Both the position numbers and the translations under genes were made by a program. The notes beneath the pieces were generated by a model. It saw only the letters and a list, made by a program, of their open reading frames with translations. It did not search any database and was not told where the DNA came from. A stretch of 64,000 nucleotides of DNA from NCBI GenBank assembly GCA_036639635.1, contig JAVWIF010000004.1, positions 8,646 through 72,645 of the forward strand, read 5' to 3'. Below, in pieces: positions 9,042 through 26,054 of this stretch. This stretch comes from Longicatena sp. (GTDB lineage: Bacteria > Bacillota_I > Bacilli_A > Erysipelotrichales > Erysipelotrichaceae). Each line of letters starts with the position of its first letter. The stretch's first letter is position 1.

Positions 9042-9179
9042 TATCTATCTTCAGTTTAGATGAGAGATAGATAATTATGCATGTTATCTTCAAGTAGTAT
9101 ATAGCAAAGTCTTAGGACTTGCAAATACGGATATAAAAAACACTAGAAAATATATTTAAGTTTTAGCACTAAAGTGTTG
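9042..9179. repeat. Direct repeat copy B (continues into the intact hrcA promoter/CIRCE)
   Basis: See copy A. Here the sequence continues ..GTGTTGACAGTGCTAA, completing the CIRCE inverted repeat. Confidence 0.9.
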
Positions 9180-9233
9180 ACAGTGCTAAAAGAATATCAT
9201 ATACTATTAGCAGACATAGAGGAAGAGTGCTAG
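9163..9233 (+). promoter_or_regulatory. hrcA-operon sigma-A promoter embedded in two CIRCE operators
   Basis: CIRCE1 at 9163..9189: TTAGCACTA-N..-CAGTGCTAA. -35 TTGACA (9177..9182) lies inside CIRCE1; 17-bp spacer; -10 TATACT (9200..9205). CIRCE2 at 9207..9233: TTAGCAGAC-N9-GAGTGCTAG. Consensus remembered as TTAGCACTC-N9-GAGTGCTAA. Confidence 0.85.
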
Positions 9234-9248
9234 AAGGGAGTGAATAAA

Positions 9249-10276
9249 ATGTTAACAGAACGTCAGTTAGGTATCTTCAAAATGATTGTAGACGAATTTA
9301 CTAGAAGCGCTGAACCAGTTGGTTCTAAGACACTGATGGATTTGTTAGATTTTACTTGTTCTAGCGCTACGATTCGTAATGAAATGGCAGTCCTTGAAGA
9401 GATAGGCTTATTAGAAAAGACCCATACTTCAAGTGGTCGTATTCCTAGTAGTAAAGGATATCGTTTCTATGTTGAACATCTTATGGAACATCAATTAGAC
9501 GATACAGTAAAGAATTCATTACAAGCTGTATTTAAAGAACGACATTATTCAATGGATGAAATCGTTCAAAAAAGTTGTGACATACTTTCTCAAATGACTT
9601 CACTTACATCAGTTGTATTAGGACCAGAAAGTAAATGTCAGACTTTACAACATATTCAACTTTTTCCCATAAGTGAACGAAGTGCAGTTGCTGTATTTAT
9701 TACTGACCATGGACATACAGAAAACAAAACATTTCAGTTTGATACCGAAGTTGGCGTAGAAGATATCAAAACTTGTTGTGCTTTATTAAATGATAAGTTG
9801 TCTGGTATTCCGATTAGTGAAGTAGTTGAAAAAATGAAGGAAATACAACCTTTGTTAGCTTCTCATGTTGCCCGTCATGAAGTATTGTTTGAAGCGTTTG
9901 TGAATGCCTTTATGCGATTTGCGACAGAACATGTGTACTGTAGTGGTCAATCGAATATGTTATATCAACCTGAATTTGCTGATATTGAAAAATTAAAGGA
10001 AATTATGAAAATGCTTGAAGATAGTTCCTTATTTAGACAACTTGCAAATCATGAAGGTGATGTTGCTATTGAAATTGGTGGCGATAATGAATTGCTTACA
10101 ATGAACGATGTTTCTGTCGTTAGTAGCAAGTTCAAAATCAATGAATTTGAAGAAGGCGAGCTCATGATTGTGGGTCCTACAAGAATGCAATACAGTCGTA
10201 TTGTTTCCTTGATGGAATATATGAGTAAAGTAATTGAAGATATGTATAAAAGCGAAAGAACCGATAGGAGGTCAAC

Positions 10277-10280
<4 letters not shown>
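9249..10280 (+). CDS. hrcA: Heat-inducible transcription repressor HrcA
   Basis: MLTERQL..PVGSKTL N-terminal wHTH as in B. subtilis HrcA; first gene of the hrcA-grpE-dnaK-dnaJ order. ATG 9249 with AGAAGGGAG 9 nt upstream, preferred over GTG 9240. Confidence 0.92.
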
Positions 10281-12732
<2,452 letters not shown>

Positions 12733-12752
12733 AACGAACGTATACTACAATC

Positions 12753-12774
12753 CCTAGTGCTTGCGCTAGGTTTT
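12753..12774 (+). terminator. Small intercistronic hairpin plus U4 between dnaK and dnaJ (partial terminator/attenuator)
   Basis: CCTAGTG-cttg-CGCTAGG 7-bp stem (one G-U pair) followed by TTTT. Confidence 0.4.
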
Positions 12775-12811
12775 GTATGTTGTAAATGAGGACTATGAGG
12801 AAGGTGATTGA

Positions 12812-13924
12812 ATGGAAAAGCGTGATTATTATGAAGTCTTGGGACTAAAAAAAGGTGCCAGTGATGATGAAATAAAAAAAGCCTATCGAAAAATGGCAAA
12901 AAAATATCATCCAGATATTAACAAAGATAAAGATGCTGAAATGAAATTCAAAGAAATCAATGAAGCAAATGAAGTCTTAAGCGACCCTCAAAAGAAAGCA
13001 ACCTATGACCAATTTGGACATGCTGGTATGGATGGATCATCTTTTGGTGGAGGCGGTCAAGGTTTTGGTAACTTTGATGACTTAGGGGATATTTTTGGAT
13101 CATTCTTCGGTGGAGGTTTTGGTGGAGGACAACAACGTCGTCAACAAAGCAATGGACCACGTAAAGGCAATGATCGCTTTATGCAAATGCGAATTGAATT
13201 CATGGATGCAGTTTTTGGTAAGACAGAAACAGTGAGTGTGGAAGTGGATGAGACTTGTGATGAGTGTTTAGGTAGTGGAGCTAAAAGTAAATCTGATATT
13301 AAATCCTGTTCAAAATGTAATGGTACAGGATCTGTAACGACACAACAAAGAACACCTTTTGGTGTTTTCCAATCACAAGGTGTTTGTCCTGATTGTCATG
13401 GAACAGGAAAGACAATTGCTAATAAATGTCCTAAATGTCATGGAAAAGGTTATGAACATAAACGTGTGAAACTAGATATAAAAATACCTGCAGGTATTCA
13501 ATCAGGTCAACAAGTTCGTGTAAGTAACAAAGGAGAGCGTGGAGCAAATGGTGGACCAAATGGAGACTTATATATTGAAATCATCGTAAGTCGTCATAAA
13601 CAATTTGTTCGTGATGGTAATGATATCCGTATTTCTATTCCATTAAGTGCAGTTGATGCGGTGTTAGGTTGTAAACTAGATGTTCCAACTGTTTATGGAG
13701 ATGTTGAATTATCAATTCCTACAGGAACACAACATGGACAACAATTCCGTTTAAAAGGAAAAGGTGTCAAATCTCCAAAAGGTGGACAAGGTGATCAATA
13801 CGTTCAAGTAACAATTGAAATCCCTACAAAGCTAACCAAAGAAGATCGTGAATTATATGAAAAAATAAAGAAAAACCAAGGGCATGAATCTGCTTTTGAA
13901 AAGTTCAAAAAAGCCTTTAAATAA
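12812..13924 (+). CDS. dnaJ: Co-chaperone DnaJ (type I Hsp40)
   Basis: J domain with KYHPD, G/F region, four CxxCxGxG zinc-finger repeats ([32 protein letters not shown]). Confidence 0.97.
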
Positions 13925-20353: not shown

Positions 20354-20986
20354 ATGAAAGGTGTTATATTTGATATGGATGGCGTATTAATAGATAGTGA
20401 ACCAGCTAATTTGAAACAGTTAAATGATTTTTATCAAGAACATGGTGTATGCGCAAGTGAAGATTTTTTGGCTTCTTTAATTGGAAGTAGTATTCAATAT
20501 ACAGCAATTGAAAGCACAAAACTTTTAGGGAAAGATTGGTCTGTTGATGAGTTTAATATGCACTTTGATGCCTATGTAGAAGAACACCCTATACGTTATT
20601 ACGAAATATTAAATGAAGGGGTACGAGATATATTAATATATTTACGTGCGCATAACGTTAAAACAGCGATAGCTAGTAGCTCACAGCTTTATAATATCAA
20701 ACGCATGTTAAAAGAATGTCAGTTGAGTGAACATTTTGATGTTATTTTAAGTGGTGAAATGTTTAAGGAAAGTAAACCAAATCCAGAAATATATTGTTGT
20801 GCAGCTAGTAAACTAGGATTGGATTCTAAAGAATGCATGGCAATTGAAGATAGTGAATTTGGAATTGAAGCTGCGTTGCGTGCTGGAATGTTAACAATCG
20901 CTTATGAAGATTTACGTTATGGTGTAAATCAAAATGAAGCACATCATTCCATTCAACATATGAATGAAATCAAACAATATTTATAA
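20354..20986 (+). CDS. HAD-IA family hydrolase (beta-phosphoglucomutase/phosphatase-like)
   Basis: DMDGVLIDSE motif I, ..ASSS.. motif II, KPNPEIY, EDSEFGIEA motif IV. Confidence 0.8.
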   Translation: MKGVIFDMDGVLIDSEPANLKQLNDFYQEHGVCASEDFLASLIGSSIQYTAIESTKLLGKDWSVDEFNMHFDAYVEEHPIRYYEILNEGVRDILIYLRAHNVKTAIASSSQLYNIKRMLKECQLSEHFDVILSGEMFKESKPNPEIYCCAASKLGLDSKECMAIEDSEFGIEAALRAGMLTIAYEDLRYGVNQNEAHHSIQHMNEIKQYL

Positions 20987-21028: not shown

Positions 21029-21101
21029 TTAGCACTCATCTATTGACAGTGCTAAACAATGTGCTATAATACAATTAGCAATCATAGACAGAGAGTGCTA
21101 A
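21029..21101 (+). promoter_or_regulatory. clpB sigma-A promoter embedded in two CIRCE operators
   Basis: CIRCE1 at 21029..21055: TTAGCACTC-N9-CAGTGCTAA, with -35 TTGACA (21043..21048) inside it. -10 TATAAT at 21065..21070. CIRCE2 at 21075..21101: TTAGCAATC-N9-GAGTGCTAA. SD AAAGGAG follows directly. Confidence 0.85.
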
Positions 21102-21115
21102 AAGGAGTGATAACA

Positions 21116-23665
21116 ATGAACTTTGAAAAAATGTCAGAGAAACTACAAGAAGTAATCATGCAAGCCGTAGAGGTGAGTAAGAGCTATCATCACGCATCAG
21201 TTGATACCATTCAATTGTTAAAAGCAATTCATGAAAATGACGTACTGGATGGTTTATTTAAACGCTTAAATATAGATAATAGTAGAGCACTAGAAATTAT
21301 TAATCAAGAGATGGAAAGAGTCGCTACTACTAGCCAAGAAAATCCACAATTATCAAATGATGTAGGTAATGCGTTTAATAAAGCCCAAGATTGGAGTACT
21401 TCCATTAATGAAACATATTTAAGTGTAGCTAGCGTATGGATTGCGTTAATCTTTAATAAATCTTATATCTCTAAATTATTAGTAAAAGAGTTTCAATTAA
21501 ATGAAAAGACTTGTAAAGATGAAGAATTACAACGTAGAGGTGGTAAAAAAATGGATACCCCTAATGCGGAAAGTAATTTAGAAGCATTGAGTAAATATGG
21601 TCGAGATTTAGTAGAAGAAGTAAAGAATGGAAAGATTGATCCAATCATTGGTCGTGATGATGAAATACGTCGTGTTATTCAAATTTTATCACGTAAGACG
21701 AAGAATAACCCCGTATTAATTGGAGAGCCAGGTGTTGGTAAAACAGCTGTTGTAGAAGGAATTGCATGGCGTATTATGAAAGGTGATGTACCTTCATCTT
21801 TGAAAGAAAAGAAATTAATTGAATTAGATCTAGGTTCTTTATTAGCAGGAGCAAAATATCGAGGAGAGTTTGAAGAACGTTTAAAAGCTGTTCTAGAAGA
21901 AGTAAAACAAGCACAAGGAAATATTATCTTATTCATTGATGAAATTCACAATTTAGTTGGCGCTGGTAAGAGCGAGGGTAGTATGGATGCTGGAAACATG
22001 TTGAAACCAATGTTAGCACGTGGTGAATTACGTTGTATTGGAGCAACTACTTTTAAAGAATATCGTCAAAATATCGAAAAGGATGCTGCATTAGAAAGGC
22101 GTTTCCAAAGAGTTACGCTACAAGAGCCTACTGTGGAAGATACAATTAGTATCTTACGTGGTTTAAAAGATCGTTTTGAATCTTATCATGGAGTTAAAAT
22201 ACTTGATGAGGCAATACTAGCTGCAGCTACTCTTAGTAATCGTTATATAAGTGATCGTTTTCTTCCAGATAAAGCCATTGATTTAATTGATGAAGCATGT
22301 GCAACACTACGTGTTGAAATGGAATCAATGCCCCAAGAACTTGATGAATTACAACGTAAGATTATGCAGCTACAAATTGAAGAAACTGCTTTAAAAAAAG
22401 AAGAAGATAAGAAAGCACGAGAACGTTGTGATGAAATAAGAAATGAATTAAAGGAGTTACAAGCTAAAAAAGATGTACTCTATACAAAATGGGAAGATGA
22501 AAAAGCTGTTCTTGAAGAAAATAAAGATGCGAAAGTAAAGCTTGAAAAAGCTCGCTTAGATTTAGAAAAAGCCCAAAATGAATCACGCTATGAAGATGCA
22601 GCTAAACTTCAATATGGAACTATTCCTCATTTAGAAAAAGTGATTGCTAACCAAAATGATAAAGAACATGAAGATGCACTTATTCAAGAGATTGTAAATG
22701 AAGAATTAATTGCGAAAATTGTATCACGTTGGACAGGTGTAGAAGTAAGTCGATTAGTAGAAAGTGAACGTAAAAAGCTTTTACAATTAAAGGACGCTTT
22801 ACAAAAAAGAGTAATTGGTCAAGACAATGCATTAGACTTAGTTAGTGATGCCATTCTTCGTAGCAAGGCTCAAATTCAAGATGAGCATCGTCCGATTGGT
22901 TCCTTCTTGTTTTTAGGACCTACTGGGGTTGGTAAAACAGAGGTAGCGAAAGCACTTGCAGAACAATTATTTGATAGTGAATCGCACATTGTTCGTATTG
23001 ATATGAGTGAATACATGGAGAAACATAGTGTTTCTAGATTAATTGGAGCACCTCCTGGTTATATTGGATATGATGAAGGTGGACAATTAAGTGAAGCAGT
23101 ACGTCGTAATCCTTATTCTATCATTCTTTTTGATGAAGTAGAAAAAGCACATCCTGATGTATTTAATGTCTTATTACAAATATTAGATGATGGACGTATT
23201 ACCGATTCAAAAGGAGTGTGCGTAGACTTTAAGAATACCTTGTTAATTATGACAAGTAACTTAGGAAGTCAGTTTGCTTTCCATGAAGATGACAAAGAAG
23301 CAAAATATATGGCAGAAGTAAAGAAATACTTTAAACCTGAATTTATTAATCGTATCGATGAAATTGTGGTGTTTAATGCTTTAAATGATGATATGTTAGG
23401 TAAGATTGCACATAAATTTATGTCAGAATTACAAATTCGTTTAGCGCGTAAAGATATTAGATTAGAGATTAGTGATGCAGTATATCAAGAAATTGCTACA
23501 CAAGGAGTAGATGCTCTTTATGGCGCACGTCCAATGAAACGTTATATTCAAAGAAATATCGAAACATTAATTGCTCGTAAAATGATTGAAGGTAATGTTG
23601 GTAAGGATGATGTGATAGAACTTACTGTAGAACATGGTGAATACAGCGTTTCACTAAAAAAATAA
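21116..23665 (+). CDS. clpB: ATP-dependent disaggregase ClpB
   Basis: Two AAA+ modules (GEPGVGKTA, GPTGVGKTE) separated by a long coiled-coil M-domain; N-domain present. Start moved to ATG 21116, because the track start 21059 lies inside the promoter/CIRCE. Confidence 0.95.
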   Translation: MNFEKMSEKLQEVIMQAVEVSKSYHHASVDTIQLLKAIHENDVLDGLFKRLNIDNSRALEIINQEMERVATTSQENPQLSNDVGNAFNKAQDWSTSINETYLSVASVWIALIFNKSYISKLLVKEFQLNEKTCKDEELQRRGGKKMDTPNAESNLEALSKYGRDLVEEVKNGKIDPIIGRDDEIRRVIQILSRKTKNNPVLIGEPGVGKTAVVEGIAWRIMKGDVPSSLKEKKLIELDLGSLLAGAKYRGEFEERLKAVLEEVKQAQGNIILFIDEIHNLVGAGKSEGSMDAGNMLKPMLARGELRCIGATTFKEYRQNIEKDAALERRFQRVTLQEPTVEDTISILRGLKDRFESYHGVKILDEAILAAATLSNRYISDRFLPDKAIDLIDEACATLRVEMESMPQELDELQRKIMQLQIEETALKKEEDKKARERCDEIRNELKELQAKKDVLYTKWEDEKAVLEENKDAKVKLEKARLDLEKAQNESRYEDAAKLQYGTIPHLEKVIANQNDKEHEDALIQEIVNEELIAKIVSRWTGVEVSRLVESERKKLLQLKDALQKRVIGQDNALDLVSDAILRSKAQIQDEHRPIGSFLFLGPTGVGKTEVAKALAEQLFDSESHIVRIDMSEYMEKHSVSRLIGAPPGYIGYDEGGQLSEAVRRNPYSIILFDEVEKAHPDVFNVLLQILDDGRITDSKGVCVDFKNTLLIMTSNLGSQFAFHEDDKEAKYMAEVKKYFKPEFINRIDEIVVFNALNDDMLGKIAHKFMSELQIRLARKDIRLEISDAVYQEIATQGVDALYGARPMKRYIQRNIETLIARKMIEGNVGKDDVIELTVEHGEYSVSLKK

Positions 23666-23667
23666 TG

Positions 23668-23712
23668 CACAACAAATGGGTACAATGAAGCGTACCCATT
23701 TGTTGTGTTTTG
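23668..23712 (+). terminator. clpB terminator
   Basis: CACAACAAATGGGTAC-loop-GTACCCATTTGTTGTG 16-bp stem followed by TTTT. Confidence 0.9.
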
Positions 23713-23878
23713 CTAAATTTTGATAAAATGAGAATTGGAACACAATTTTTTGTCATTATATTCACAAAAAATCATGTGTTATTATGGGATAACTACTGAT
23801 TTACTTGAAATTTTAGTTAGATAGTTATAAACTATATGACATGAGTGCAATTTATAACGTACTAGAAAAGGAGAATTT

Positions 23879-24715
23879 ATGTTTGGATATGTAGTAGTAA
23901 ATAAACCAGAATTAAAAATAAAAGATTTTGATGTCTATCAAGCGTTCTATTGTGGACTTTGTCGTTCCTTACATAAACAATTCGGACGCTTTGGACAAGT
24001 TTCTTTGAATTATGATTTAACTTTTCTAGCAATTCTATTAAGTGGACTGTATGAGCCACAAAATGAAACAATCGAAGAACGTTGTATTGTTCATCCTCTT
24101 TCTAAACATCAAAAAGTTGGTAATCCATATATCGATTATGCTGCTGAAATGACCATTGTCCTAACTTATTTGAAATGTAGTGATGATTGGAACGATGACC
24201 ATCACTATCAAAGTCGCATGATGATGGGAATGCTTGCTCATAAATATGAACGTGTAAAAGAAAAATACCCAAAGAAGATTGAGAATATAACAAATGCTTT
24301 AACAAAAATTAACGCTTGTGAAGAGCAAAAAGATTATGACTTAGATAAGCTAAGCTCTTTGTTTGGAATTGTAATGGGAGAAATTCTCGCTTATAAAAAT
24401 GATGAATGGAATACGCTACTATATGAAACAGGAGATTATCTAGGACGTTATATTTATATTATGGATGCTTTTGATGATATTGAAGAAGATGTTAAAAATG
24501 GGGCTTTTAATCCATTTATAGAAGAATATAAACATGAAAACTTTAATACAAGAGTAAAAACGATTTTAGAAATTATGATTTCTAAATCAGCTGATGCTTT
24601 TGAGATGTTGCCCATCTTGCAGTATGCAGATATTTTAAGAAATATTATATATTCAGGAGTATGGGCAAAATATGAAATGATAAGAAAGCAAAGATTAGGT
24701 GAACAACATGAATGA
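23879..24715 (+). CDS. DUF5685-like protein (unknown function; two Asp-rich motifs)
   Basis: N-terminal MFGYVVVNKPEL..FYCGLCRSL is as I remember for DUF5685. All-helical remainder with YLKCSDDWNDD (aa 97-107) and MDAFDDIEEDVKNGAFNP (aa 195-212). Good SD AAAGGAG. Confidence 0.6.
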   Translation: MFGYVVVNKPELKIKDFDVYQAFYCGLCRSLHKQFGRFGQVSLNYDLTFLAILLSGLYEPQNETIEERCIVHPLSKHQKVGNPYIDYAAEMTIVLTYLKCSDDWNDDHHYQSRMMMGMLAHKYERVKEKYPKKIENITNALTKINACEEQKDYDLDKLSSLFGIVMGEILAYKNDEWNTLLYETGDYLGRYIYIMDAFDDIEEDVKNGAFNPFIEEYKHENFNTRVKTILEIMISKSADAFEMLPILQYADILRNIIYSGVWAKYEMIRKQRLGEQHE

Positions 24716-25325
24716 TCCATATAGAACATTGGGAATCGCGAGTAATGCAAGCGAAGATGAAGTAAAAAAAGCATATCGGACCATGGCAAAGAAGTATCAC
24801 CCAGATGTAAATAAAGATCCTGGTGCAGAAGAACGTTTTATTGAAATTCAAAATGCTTATCAACAGATTATGGATGCGAAAAAGCGTGGAGATAGTGGTA
24901 ACTTTTGGGAAAATAGTGGCTTTGGTGGCTTTGGCGGTTTTGGTGGAAATACGTATAGTGGTGCAGGACAAGGCAATGCATATCAAAATGTTGTAAATTA
25001 TTTAAATATGCAACGTTATAGTGAAGCATATCAAATTTTACAACAGATGCAAGATAGAGGAGCAGATTGGTATTACTTAAGTGCTATGGCAAATTATGGC
25101 ATGGGTAATCAAATTGCGGCAATGGATTGCGCTGAAAAAGCTTGTCAAATGGATCCTACAAACCAACAATATCGTCAGCTTTACGCACAATTACAAAGCG
25201 GTCGTACACGTTATCAAAATATGCAACAGCCTTTCACTATGGGAGGTAGTAATTTATGTTGTAAACTAATTGTTTGTAACATGTGTTTAACCTCTTGTTG
25301 TGGTAGAGGATATATATGTTGTTAA
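24708..25325 (+). CDS. J-domain protein with G/F stretch, TPR-like segment and C-terminal cysteine string
   Basis: [24 protein letters not shown] (HPD motif). GFGGFGGFGG. Helical YSEAYQILQQ..MDPTNQQY segment. The last 22 aa, CCKLIVCNMCLTSCCGRGYICC, hold 8 Cys. ATG 24708 (AGGTGA 5 nt upstream) overlaps the upstream stop by 8 nt. Confidence 0.85.
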   Translation: MNDPYRTLGIASNASEDEVKKAYRTMAKKYHPDVNKDPGAEERFIEIQNAYQQIMDAKKRGDSGNFWENSGFGGFGGFGGNTYSGAGQGNAYQNVVNYLNMQRYSEAYQILQQMQDRGADWYYLSAMANYGMGNQIAAMDCAEKACQMDPTNQQYRQLYAQLQSGRTRYQNMQQPFTMGGSNLCCKLIVCNMCLTSCCGRGYICC

Positions 25326-25332
25326 AAGCGTA

Positions 25333-25367
25333 TTGTGAAAGTTTATTAGTAGACTTTCACAATTTTT
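25333..25367 (+). terminator. Terminator after the J-domain gene
   Basis: TTGTGAAAGT-loop-ACTTTCACAA followed by T5. Confidence 0.8.
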
Positions 25368-25403: not shown

Positions 25404-26054
25404 ATGAGCAGTATTAAACATATTATATGGGATTGGAATGGAACACTTTTAGATGACATAGATGTCAGTATGACAGCATTAAATATTCTTCTAGAAAGTG
25501 AGCATTTACCTCTTGTTCTAGATATCAACGAGTACCGTAAATATTTTCAATTTCCAGTGCGTGAATATTACAAGAAAGTTGGCTTTGATTTTGAGAAGAC
25601 ACCATTTACGCTTCTAGCACAAAAATACATGGACTATTACCAACCACATAGTTTTACGTGTTCTCTACATGATGGTGCATTAGATACCTTGCAAAAAGCG
25701 CAAGACAATGGAATTAAACAATATTTGTTATCTGCTTCCAACCTAACATTTTTAAAAGAACAAGTAGCTAATTATCCTATTTCTCAATATTTTACAAGTA
25801 TTTGTGGCTTAGACAATATACATGCCTCTTCTAAAGCAGCACTAGCCAAAGAGTTTGTGGAAGCAAATGGATTTAGTCATGATAGCGTGGTCTTTGTAGG
25901 TGATAGTGTACATGATAGTGAAGTAGCACATGGAGCTAATTGTCATTGTATTTTAATAGCAAATGGGCATGAACATCGAAAAAAACTCGAAGATACTGGT
26001 TGTAAAGTAGTAGACAGTATGCGCGAGTTTGAACAATTATTAGATATTATTTAG
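25404..26054 (+). CDS. HAD-family hydrolase (phosphoglycolate-phosphatase-like)
   Basis: IIWDWNGTLLDD motif I, LSAS motif II, VGDSVHD motif IV. Confidence 0.75.
   Translation: MSSIKHIIWDWNGTLLDDIDVSMTALNILLESEHLPLVLDINEYRKYFQFPVREYYKKVGFDFEKTPFTLLAQKYMDYYQPHSFTCSLHDGALDTLQKAQDNGIKQYLLSASNLTFLKEQVANYPISQYFTSICGLDNIHASSKAALAKEFVEANGFSHDSVVFVGDSVHDSEVAHGANCHCILIANGHEHRKKLEDTGCKVVDSMREFEQLLDII

Follow-up and report, generated by a model that had tools for sequence, protein, structure and literature searches.

Why does a gene of the Pfam family DUF5685 run into a gene for a J-domain protein with a string of cysteines at its end? The locus that raises this question lies in a stretch of 64,000 nucleotides from Longicatena sp. 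(Erysipelotrichaceae; GenBank assembly GCA_036639635.1, contig JAVWIF010000004.1, positions 8,646 to 72,645 of the forward strand), which we call the window and in which positions are counted from the first letter. As shown below, the two genes make up the constant core of a chaperone-linked module that is widespread, as yet undescribed and found in hundreds of species of gut Bacillota and Coriobacteriia. DUF5685 appears to be a divergent relative of the isoprenoid synthases, and we tentatively read the pair as an enzyme and its substrate, in which DUF5685 may prenylate cysteines in the tail of the J-protein. The two genes are arranged as follows.

23879..24715, + strand: DUF5685 gene, 278 aa, start MFGYVVVNKPELK, stop TGA at 24713-24715
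24708..25325, + strand: cysteine-string J-protein gene, 205 aa from ATG 24708

An essentially obligate pair of overlapping genes

The ATG of the second gene lies inside the end of the first, within ATGAATGA, which makes an overlap of 8 nt and agrees with how the initial annotation had read the junction. Upstream of this start is a GGTGA ribosome-binding site. The listing of open reading frames (ORFs) offers GTG 24699 as an alternative start; as the homologues and a near-identical NCBI-annotated protein (P0121) begin with MNDPY, ATG 24708 is the likely one. Searching with the unit brought up a 100% identical protein in a Longicatena sp. (Erysipelotrichaceae).

The pairing of these genes is far beyond chance and essentially obligate. 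One genome per species was scanned, and at least 571 GTDB species genomes carry DUF5685. In the best 80 of these, DUF5685 is followed on its own strand by a J gene with a cysteine tail in every case (80/80), most commonly with an overlap of 4 or 8 nt, and the encoded J-proteins have 5-10 Cys within their last 30 residues. The same order of DUF5685 followed by a Cys-tail J gene was found in 7/7 loci from the Coriobacteriia, a different phylum. The earlier suspicion that the two might be conserved neighbours is thus borne out in two phyla, mostly with overlapping genes. A reverse search of metagenomes, seeded with the J-protein, gave 71 family members, 68 of which had enough upstream sequence; DUF5685 lies upstream of the J gene in 63 of these 68 loci. 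The loci examined for context are the best-scoring subsets of larger match lists and cover the less divergent members of the family.

The family as a whole comprises 6155 clusters at 50% identity (E up to 1e-3). Natural fusions of DUF5685 to a J-protein were not found among its members, the longer of which bear low-complexity insertions or extensions. One metagenomic locus (L108) has a gene for a 474-aa, multi-helix protein resembling a MATE-type transporter between the DUF5685 and J genes. Full-text literature searches gave no functional description of DUF5685 (PF18937), nor of bacterial cysteine-string or prenylated J-proteins, and the sole mention of DUF5685 is an incidental domain listing for C. 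difficile R20291. The initial annotation had likewise known of no described function for the pair.

Fold and active-site motifs of DUF5685

The product of the first gene matches DUF5685 over its full length (E 7e-105; 350.7 bits against a cut-off of 26.7; residues 1-266 on profile positions 1-271 of 272) and matches no NCBIfam family. What had been called DUF5685-like from the letters alone is therefore a member of the family, and FYCGLC and both Asp-rich motifs stand where they had been placed. Conservation was counted over 118 diverse representatives with 32-48% identity to the query, and the motifs of the window protein are listed here with these counts.

23951..23962, + strand: C25-G-L-C28 knuckle (FYCGLC) in helix 1; C25 in 117/118, C28 in 117/118
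24083..24094, + strand: C69-x-x-H72 knuckle, in a beta-hairpin (residues 63-81) before the helix of the first Asp-rich motif; C69 in 117/118, H72 in 105/118
24182..24199, + strand: D102-D-W-N-D106-D107, the first Asp-rich motif, on the C-terminal end of helix 83-107; D102 in 117/118, D106 in 116/118
24464..24514, + strand: second, putative metal-binding motif, D196-x3-D200-x3-D204...N211-P212, at the C-terminal end of helix 178-206
24638..24664, + strand: R254-N255-x-x-Y258-x-G260-x-W262 in the last helix; conserved and aligned with the C-terminal helix of CrtM

The stretch YLKCSDDWNDD corresponds to residues 97-107 and the second motif, MDAFDDIEEDVKNGAFNP, to residues 195-212, with D102 and D199/200 about 97 residues apart. 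The second motif is conserved almost without exception (D196 in 117, D200 and D204 in all and N211 in 117 of the 118 representatives), and its aspartates are spaced i, i+4, i+8, as they are in class I enzymes at the second metal motif. Judging from model and alignment, a Mg2+/diphosphate site with DDxxD on one helix and D-x3-D-x3-D plus N-P on the opposite helix looks intact. As this Asp site is nearly perfectly conserved, a purely non-catalytic role of the family is disfavoured. The segment from R254 to W262 is likely part of the diphosphate or active-site wall; R254 itself is kept in 89/118 representatives and replaced by Lys in 10 more. Y24 and G26 are invariant. From their CxxC...CxxH pattern, C25, C28, C69 and H72 may form a Zn(Cys3His) site, which is probably structural and family-specific.

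An AlphaFold2 model built with 72 homologues (mean predicted local distance difference test, pLDDT, 91.6; predicted template modelling score, pTM, 0.89) is all-helical save for the one beta-hairpin. When this model was compared with the PDB using Foldseek, the top 50 matches were all isoprenoid synthases or MoeN5, among them hexa-, octa- and solanesyl-diphosphate synthases, the farnesyl- and geranylgeranyl-diphosphate synthases (FPPS/GGPPS) and the prenyltransferase MoeN5 itself. The best of these had TMq 0.55-0.66 and a probability of 1.0, but an E value of only ~2e-3. In the model, the two Asp-rich motifs end the opposing helices 83-107 and 178-206, which are separated by three further helices. 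Helices D and H carry the metal-binding motifs in the isoprenoid-synthase fold, and the Asp motifs of DUF5685 occupy the same positions. The isoprenoid-synthase fold that the initial annotation had proposed is thus supported by the structural comparison.

At the level of sequence the relationship is far more distant. Searches of DUF5685 against PDB chains, with a single sequence and with a profile, found nothing relevant; the sole match, colicin E1, was set aside as a chance match. At E up to 1, the window protein gave no match to the polyprenyl synthetase family (PF00348), which is also absent from the 25 most-matched Pfam families listed (25 of 60) for the 118 members. Alignment to E. coli IspA (verified as 1rqj_A) using hhalign was non-significant, and the sole stretch that aligned did pair both DD motifs. 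The SQS_PSY family (PF00494; squalene/phytoene synthases, SQS/PSY) was matched by 3/118 members below threshold, with a best E of 0.0072. Even so, it is the most-matched family besides DUF5685 itself, four others being matched by two members each. One member weakly matches DUF2600, which we take to be the YtpB terpene-synthase family.

An hhalign comparison with CrtM alone was weak, and a profile of ten SQS/PSY sequences was needed to exceed the controls. This profile consisted of CrtM (verified identical to PDB 4e9u_A) and nine plasmid-borne crtM, crtB or hpnD genes. Against it, the DUF5685 alignment scored 26.7 (P 0.0064, 110 columns), compared with 14.8 for the reversed profile and at most 20.3 for 30 column-shuffled profiles; the case for SQS/PSY homology is this modest score as judged against our own reversed and shuffled controls. 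The alignment pairs D196/D200/D204 with N168/D172/D176 of CrtM and N211-P212 with the subsequent Y-x-P, and its global version also pairs D102/D103/D106 with D48/D49/D52. The earlier impression that the Asp motifs resemble those of CrtM and its relatives is supported by this pairing of both motifs. By predicted fold and profile similarity, DUF5685 is a family of its own within the isoprenoid-synthase superfamily, very divergent and with SQS/PSY as the nearest family in profile.

Like SQS/PSY proteins (CrtM, CrtB, HpnD) and YisP, DUF5685 is ~280 aa long, has both Asp motifs and G-x-x-(Y/N)-x-P in colinear order and would share class I ionisation logic. Unlike them, its N-terminal 80 residues form the CxxC...CxxH element and beta-hairpin, and the gene has no carotenoid or hopanoid context and is obligately coupled to a J-protein. 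These likenesses raise a first rival explanation, namely that DUF5685 is a small-molecule isoprenoid enzyme at the membrane (an SQS/PSY-like synthase, a terpene synthase or cyclase, or a YisP-like phosphatase), which the J-protein tethers, stabilises or regulates without its tail being a substrate. The fold and both metal motifs do belong to prenyl-diphosphate enzymes, the weak SQS_PSY and DUF2600 matches point the same way, and YisP (PDB 3we9) is a phosphatase with the SQS fold. However, the neighbourhoods of the pair contain no other recurrent genes for isoprenoid or terpenoid tailoring, hallmarks of trans-isoprenyl diphosphate synthases and SQS beyond the Asp motifs are absent, and neither PF00348 nor PF00494 is matched at threshold. 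Nor are we aware of any metabolic terpenoid enzyme that comes obligately with a J-protein and Hsp70. We consider this explanation quite improbable.

A class-C J-protein with a cysteine-string tail

The second gene encodes a protein with four recognisable parts.

24714..24887, + strand: J domain, residues 3-60; PF00226 E 2.5e-22, Foldseek matches to J domains at a root-mean-square deviation of 1.6-2 Å
24888..24968, + strand: Gly/Phe-rich disordered linker with GFGGFGGFGG; pLDDT <50 over residues 61-88
24969..25202, + strand: TPR-like helical domain, residues 88-165; pLDDT ~80
25257..25322, + strand: cysteine-string tail CCKLIVCNMCLTSCCGRGYICC, residues 184-205; 8 Cys in 22 residues, ending in -YICC

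The HPD motif occupies residues 31-33 (24798-24806), within KKYHPD. The J domain with HPD, the GFGGFGGFGG linker, the TPR-like segment and the 8-Cys tail had all been recognised in the initial annotation, and the sequence and Pfam agree with it. Over residues 98-164, Pfam gives sub-threshold TPR matches, and the Foldseek matches of the middle domain include the Hsp70/Hsp90-binding TPR domains of SPAG1, RPAP3, PP5 and Cyp40, as well as MamA. A disordered linker (residues 166-183) leads to the tail, which is modelled as a low-confidence helix (AlphaFold2, overall pLDDT 65). NCBIfam gives only partial DnaJ-type matches. The protein lacks the Pfam domains PF00684 and PF01556 and so is not a type I DnaJ; the canonical DnaJ of the window (12812-13924) has both. 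By its domain content, the product is a class-C J-domain co-chaperone.

Homologues from Erysipelotrichales, Lachnospirales and other Clostridia have one common architecture: HPD J domain, G/F-rich linker, helical domain, Q-x-P-F/Y-G hinge and Cys-rich tail. We compared 75 distinct tails, counted from their first Cys. The median tail has 25 residues and 7 Cys (range 6-10), and the tails together consist of 28% Cys, 15% Gly, 12% Leu and ~0.2% Trp, with no His, scarcely any Asp or Glu and mostly one basic residue. Their best 19-residue Kyte-Doolittle window has a median of 1.53, just below the typical transmembrane threshold. The enrichment in cysteine is kept across phyla while the Cys positions drift, and in the alignment only one tail Cys column is invariant and two are near-invariant. 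The analogy to Rab -CC and CaaX termini that had been drawn earlier is a loose one. It fits the -YICC end of the window protein and the 40/75 tails that end in CC plus 0-3 residues, but 35/75 end otherwise and there is no CaaX box.

A metagenomic subfamily has acidic tails, for example CGTGNMCCDLWIADSLCECMGGDLC. Acidic tails disfavour a plain transmembrane anchor and favour a chemical role of the cysteines. Their consensus is CGTGNMCCDL[WC][IV]AD[SQ]LCECMGGDLCxC[IM], seen in loci L108 (1697-4642), L092, L093, L100, L102, L115 and L118. Another tail type, …CMS…CCxGG…GLPIICC[IL], is common to three loci labelled Alistipes communis, Bacteroidaceae and Flexilinea (L068, L069, L079) and to an Anaerovoracaceae-like locus (L053), a pattern that suggests lateral transfer or errors in contig binning. 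In the linker, the copy number of the GFG repeat (24918-24947) also varies: P0121, otherwise 99% identical, has GFGGFGG and 202 instead of 205 aa. We rejected a reading of the tail as a C-terminal sorting signal or as a ribosomally synthesised and post-translationally modified peptide (RiPP), as a signal peptide, a CTERM-type NCBIfam match and a radical-SAM or other maturase in the neighbourhood are all lacking.

Tails so rich in cysteine invite a second rival explanation, in which the string is a metal or Fe-S tail that exchanges or shares a cluster with the Cys3His site of DUF5685, helped by Hsp70 as in Fe-S co-chaperone systems. It draws on the 6-10 Cys per tail, the subfamily with Asp and Glu among the cysteines and the conserved CxxC...CxxH of DUF5685, and J-proteins with metal-binding Cys modules exist, such as those of the HscB and Dph4 types. 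The positions of the tail cysteines are poorly fixed, however, and the tails are rich in Gly and Leu, lack His and are predicted to be disordered or helical at low confidence; the conserved Asp-rich diphosphate site would also be left without a role. We regard this as the least probable of the explanations, and a very unlikely one.

Lipid-anchored J-proteins are known from eukaryotes, where Ydj1/DNAJA proteins are farnesylated and DNAJC5 is palmitoylated. As in DNAJC5 and Ydj1, a J domain, a linker and a lipid-anchor-type Cys element are combined here, and the predicted role is likewise to bring Hsp70 to the membrane. Unlike DNAJC5, the protein is bacterial, contains a TPR-like domain and has its string at the extreme C-terminus. 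In eukaryotes, the anchors are attached by DHHC palmitoyltransferases or by CaaX farnesyltransferase (an alpha-alpha barrel with Zn), neither of which resembles DUF5685. The architecture is convergent, with no homology beyond the J domain. DjlA also acts close to the membrane as a J-protein, but it is anchored by an N-terminal transmembrane helix instead.

Module Hsp70s and a zinc-ribbon protein

The J-protein is tied to Hsp70 by more than its J domain. In several lineages the J gene is directly followed by a gene for a dedicated Hsp70, which substantiates the link to Hsp70 that had been drawn from the window. This is the case in 7/7 Coriobacteriia loci and, at a distance of 14-34 nt, in 9/80 Bacillota genomes and 8 metagenome loci; the Bacillota concerned are Massilimicrobiota, Thomasclavelia, other Erysipelotrichaceae and Anaerostipes. 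Over three separate lineages (Coriobacteriia, Coprobacillaceae and Anaerostipes) the spacing is 14-112 nt. The module Hsp70s are 53-64% identical to the DnaK of the window; where DnaK has its acidic tail, they share the C-terminal motif L-E-x-S-S/A-A-x-L-x-S. The TPR-like domain of the J-protein might bind to this motif. The locus of the pair in the window has no dedicated Hsp70; a HAD hydrolase gene follows there instead. The module Hsp70 genes are found at these positions of their own loci.

L003, 7454-9217
L037, 7658-9391
L161, 5671-7461
L163, 6086-7873
L165-L167, further copies

A second recurrent partner is a ~135-aa zinc-ribbon protein, whose gene directly precedes DUF5685 in 57/80 genomes and also occurs in Coriobacteriia (for example L004 1385-1792, L007 260-652, L122 3475-3882 and L166 3561-3977). 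It starts with MKE(K/R)FxRFMQGRYGxDQ, has apparently two hydrophobic helices and ends in a CxxC...CxxC zinc ribbon; it matched no Pfam or NCBIfam family, and a search of the window for its gene found none. All five distinct Coriobacteriia loci examined have the order zinc-ribbon or small protein, DUF5685, Cys-tail J-protein, HSP70. In 4/5 of the J loci without DUF5685, the J gene directly follows that of the zinc-ribbon protein.

Other frequent neighbours vary by lineage. In one Coriobacteriia lineage, a MarR-family regulator gene abuts DUF5685, after the small upstream gene (L161 3475-3999, L162 1324-1848), and is a possible dedicated regulator of the module. Membership in a defence system was rejected, since none of the three proteins has a PADLOC match.

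A dedicated Hsp70 is what a third rival explanation would lead one to find. According to this, the module is a dedicated Hsp70 system in which DUF5685 is a client or stoichiometric partner, as IscU is for HscB-HscA. The TPR-like domain would hand DUF5685 to Hsp70 for remodelling, for example for loading or release of a lipid or metal, and the cysteine string would be an intrinsic membrane- or metal-binding element that DUF5685 leaves unmodified. The resemblance to HscB-HscA-IscU lies in a specialised J-protein with, in some lineages, its own Hsp70 and a specific partner; the partner here is a protein of the isoprenoid-synthase fold rather than an Fe-S scaffold, and the window has no dedicated Hsp70. 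Besides the Hsp70 genes downstream in Coriobacteriia (7/7), Coprobacillaceae and Anaerostipes, several features suit a client relationship: overlapping genes favour equimolar synthesis, in the J-protein a TPR-like protein-binding domain is conserved, as is a Cys3His site in DUF5685 itself, and the tail is almost hydrophobic enough to associate with membranes unaided (median window 1.53). What this explanation leaves unaccounted for is the 98-100% conserved diphosphate/Mg2+ site, which points to catalysis, and the upkeep of 28% Cys in tails that otherwise drift; the acidic-tail variants also disfavour simple membrane insertion. We hold it to be unlikely, though the most probable of the three rivals.

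A possible prenyltransferase and its substrate

The closest parallel for an enzyme-substrate pair is found in ComQ/ComX and StheQ/StheX, in which prenyltransferases of the same fold modify the flexible C-terminal part of an adjacently encoded peptide (bioRxiv 10.64898/2026.08.29.745113; PMC13290415). DUF5685 has the all-helical isoprenoid-synthase fold in common with ComQ and its relatives (StheQ, PalQ and the P domain of ChrPC), as well as an Asp-rich motif for a prenyl diphosphate. Its gene also adjoins one whose flexible C-terminal region is the proposed acceptor, which is a likeness by analogy only. No sequence relationship to ComQ was detected, PF18937 being the only Pfam family that the first gene product matches, and quorum-sensing genes are not found nearby. 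The proposed acceptor is a Cys on a folded co-chaperone of 205 aa rather than a Trp on a short secreted peptide. ComQ-type enzymes have a conserved Gln just before the second Asp motif that is implicated in Trp recognition (PMC13290415). This Gln is absent from DUF5685, which has Met before D196 both in the window protein and in the family consensus. The second motif of DUF5685 is a fully conserved metal-type triad, compared with the non-metal 'pseudo-SARM' of StheQ.

By analogy with these systems, we propose that DUF5685 and the J-protein are a ComQ/ComX-like pair of enzyme and substrate, a reading to which we give a little less than an even chance. DUF5685 would bind and ionise a prenyl diphosphate, for example farnesyl diphosphate from the pathway to the cell-wall carrier lipid, and would move the prenyl group onto one or more tail thiols, as ComQ does with the adjacently encoded ComX. 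The lipidated tail would anchor the J-protein at the cytoplasmic membrane, in most lineages beside the zinc-ribbon protein with its two transmembrane helices. There the J domain would activate Hsp70, which in the window would be the canonical DnaK encoded 13 kb upstream and in Coriobacteriia, Coprobacillaceae and Anaerostipes the dedicated Hsp70 encoded downstream. The analysis shows the fold, the conservation of the motifs, the coupling of the genes, the tie to Hsp70 and the composition of the tail, which is flexible and exposed. Prenyl donor, thiol acceptor and membrane tethering are all steps that we infer, and modification or anchoring of the tail is so entirely.

Several points weigh against this proposal. 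The likeness to SQS/PSY is weak in sequence, with Pfam matches below the gathering threshold and an hhalign probability of ~6%. The SQS/PSY fold occurs in the phosphatase YisP too, and in NDUFAF6, a complex I assembly factor for which enzymatic activity is not established. Endogenous protein S-prenylation is, to our knowledge, undescribed in bacteria. The characterised peptide prenyltransferases of the isoprenoid-synthase fold all modify tryptophan, not cysteine (PMC13290415), so that a Cys-directed member would be new. Strict 1:1 translational coupling together with a dedicated Hsp70 would, by analogy with HscB-HscA-IscU, fit a stoichiometric complex or client equally well. Lastly, the 5/68 J-Cys loci without an adjacent DUF5685 still encode Cys-rich tails; in these, the enzyme could lie elsewhere in the genome or be dispensable. 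The dedicated Hsp70 and these five loci disfavour a simple picture of enzyme and substrate.

A bolder version of the proposal is that DUF5685 founds a bacterial family of protein cysteine S-prenyltransferases on the SQS/isoprenoid-synthase fold, with the cysteine-string J-protein as substrate, within a membrane Hsp70 station that includes the zinc-ribbon protein and, in some cases, a private Hsp70. We consider this rather doubtful.

Neighbourhood and signals in the window

In the window, the pair is flanked by these signals.

23668..23707: 17-bp terminator-like hairpin directly after the clpB stop, T-rich on both sides, parting clpB from the pair
23805..23833, + strand: promoter-like site TTGAAA-17-TAAACT, a consensus match only and not above shuffle expectation
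23870-23873: GGAG ribosome-binding site of the DUF5685 gene
25332..25363, + strand: terminator-like hairpin with a T-run, closing the bicistron

From these signals, the DUF5685 and J-protein genes look like an independent, discrete bicistron. The dnaK gene (10924-12732), which had been placed correctly at 10924, is part of a canonical hrcA-grpE-dnaK-dnaJ operon (9240-13924), and clpB occupies 21059-23665. The initial annotation had described the pair as lying next to clpB. This holds in the window but is no feature of the module, as the neighbours differ elsewhere, and clpB was rejected as a part of it because the listing of the most frequent neighbour clusters does not include it. Two genes for HAD-family hydrolases (20354-20986 and 25404-26054) flank the block of clpB, DUF5685 and J-protein genes, without recurrence in other loci.

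Paired CIRCE elements, the operators of HrcA, are found ahead of hrcA (9163-9233) and clpB (21029-21101). No CIRCE operator precedes the DUF5685/J pair and a CtsR box was not found, and on these grounds heat-shock co-regulation of the pair was rejected. The second CIRCE element of clpB (21075-21101) falls within the longest clpB ORF, which starts at 21059. The true start of clpB is therefore probably the ATG at ~21116 (MNFEKM...).

Implications

DUF5685 is a large family with no published function. The kinds of system compared here are each known already; what is new is the combination of an isoprenoid-fold transferase and adjacent substrate with a lipid- or Cys-anchored J-protein. Even if DUF5685 should prove to be a client of Hsp70, an obligate module of isoprenoid-synthase-fold protein, J-protein and Hsp70 would add a specialised chaperone system to those known, one whose client is named and can be tested. 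Prenylation of the tail, if real, would make the pair the first endogenous system for protein S-prenylation in bacteria. DUF5685 would then be the first Cys-directed enzyme among the peptide prenyltransferases of the isoprenoid-synthase fold, which would be useful for biocatalysis. Lipid-anchored J-proteins such as Ydj1 and CSP-alpha would have arisen independently in bacteria, and abundant human-gut commensals and relatives of C. difficile would possess a branch of the DnaK network that is directed to the membrane.

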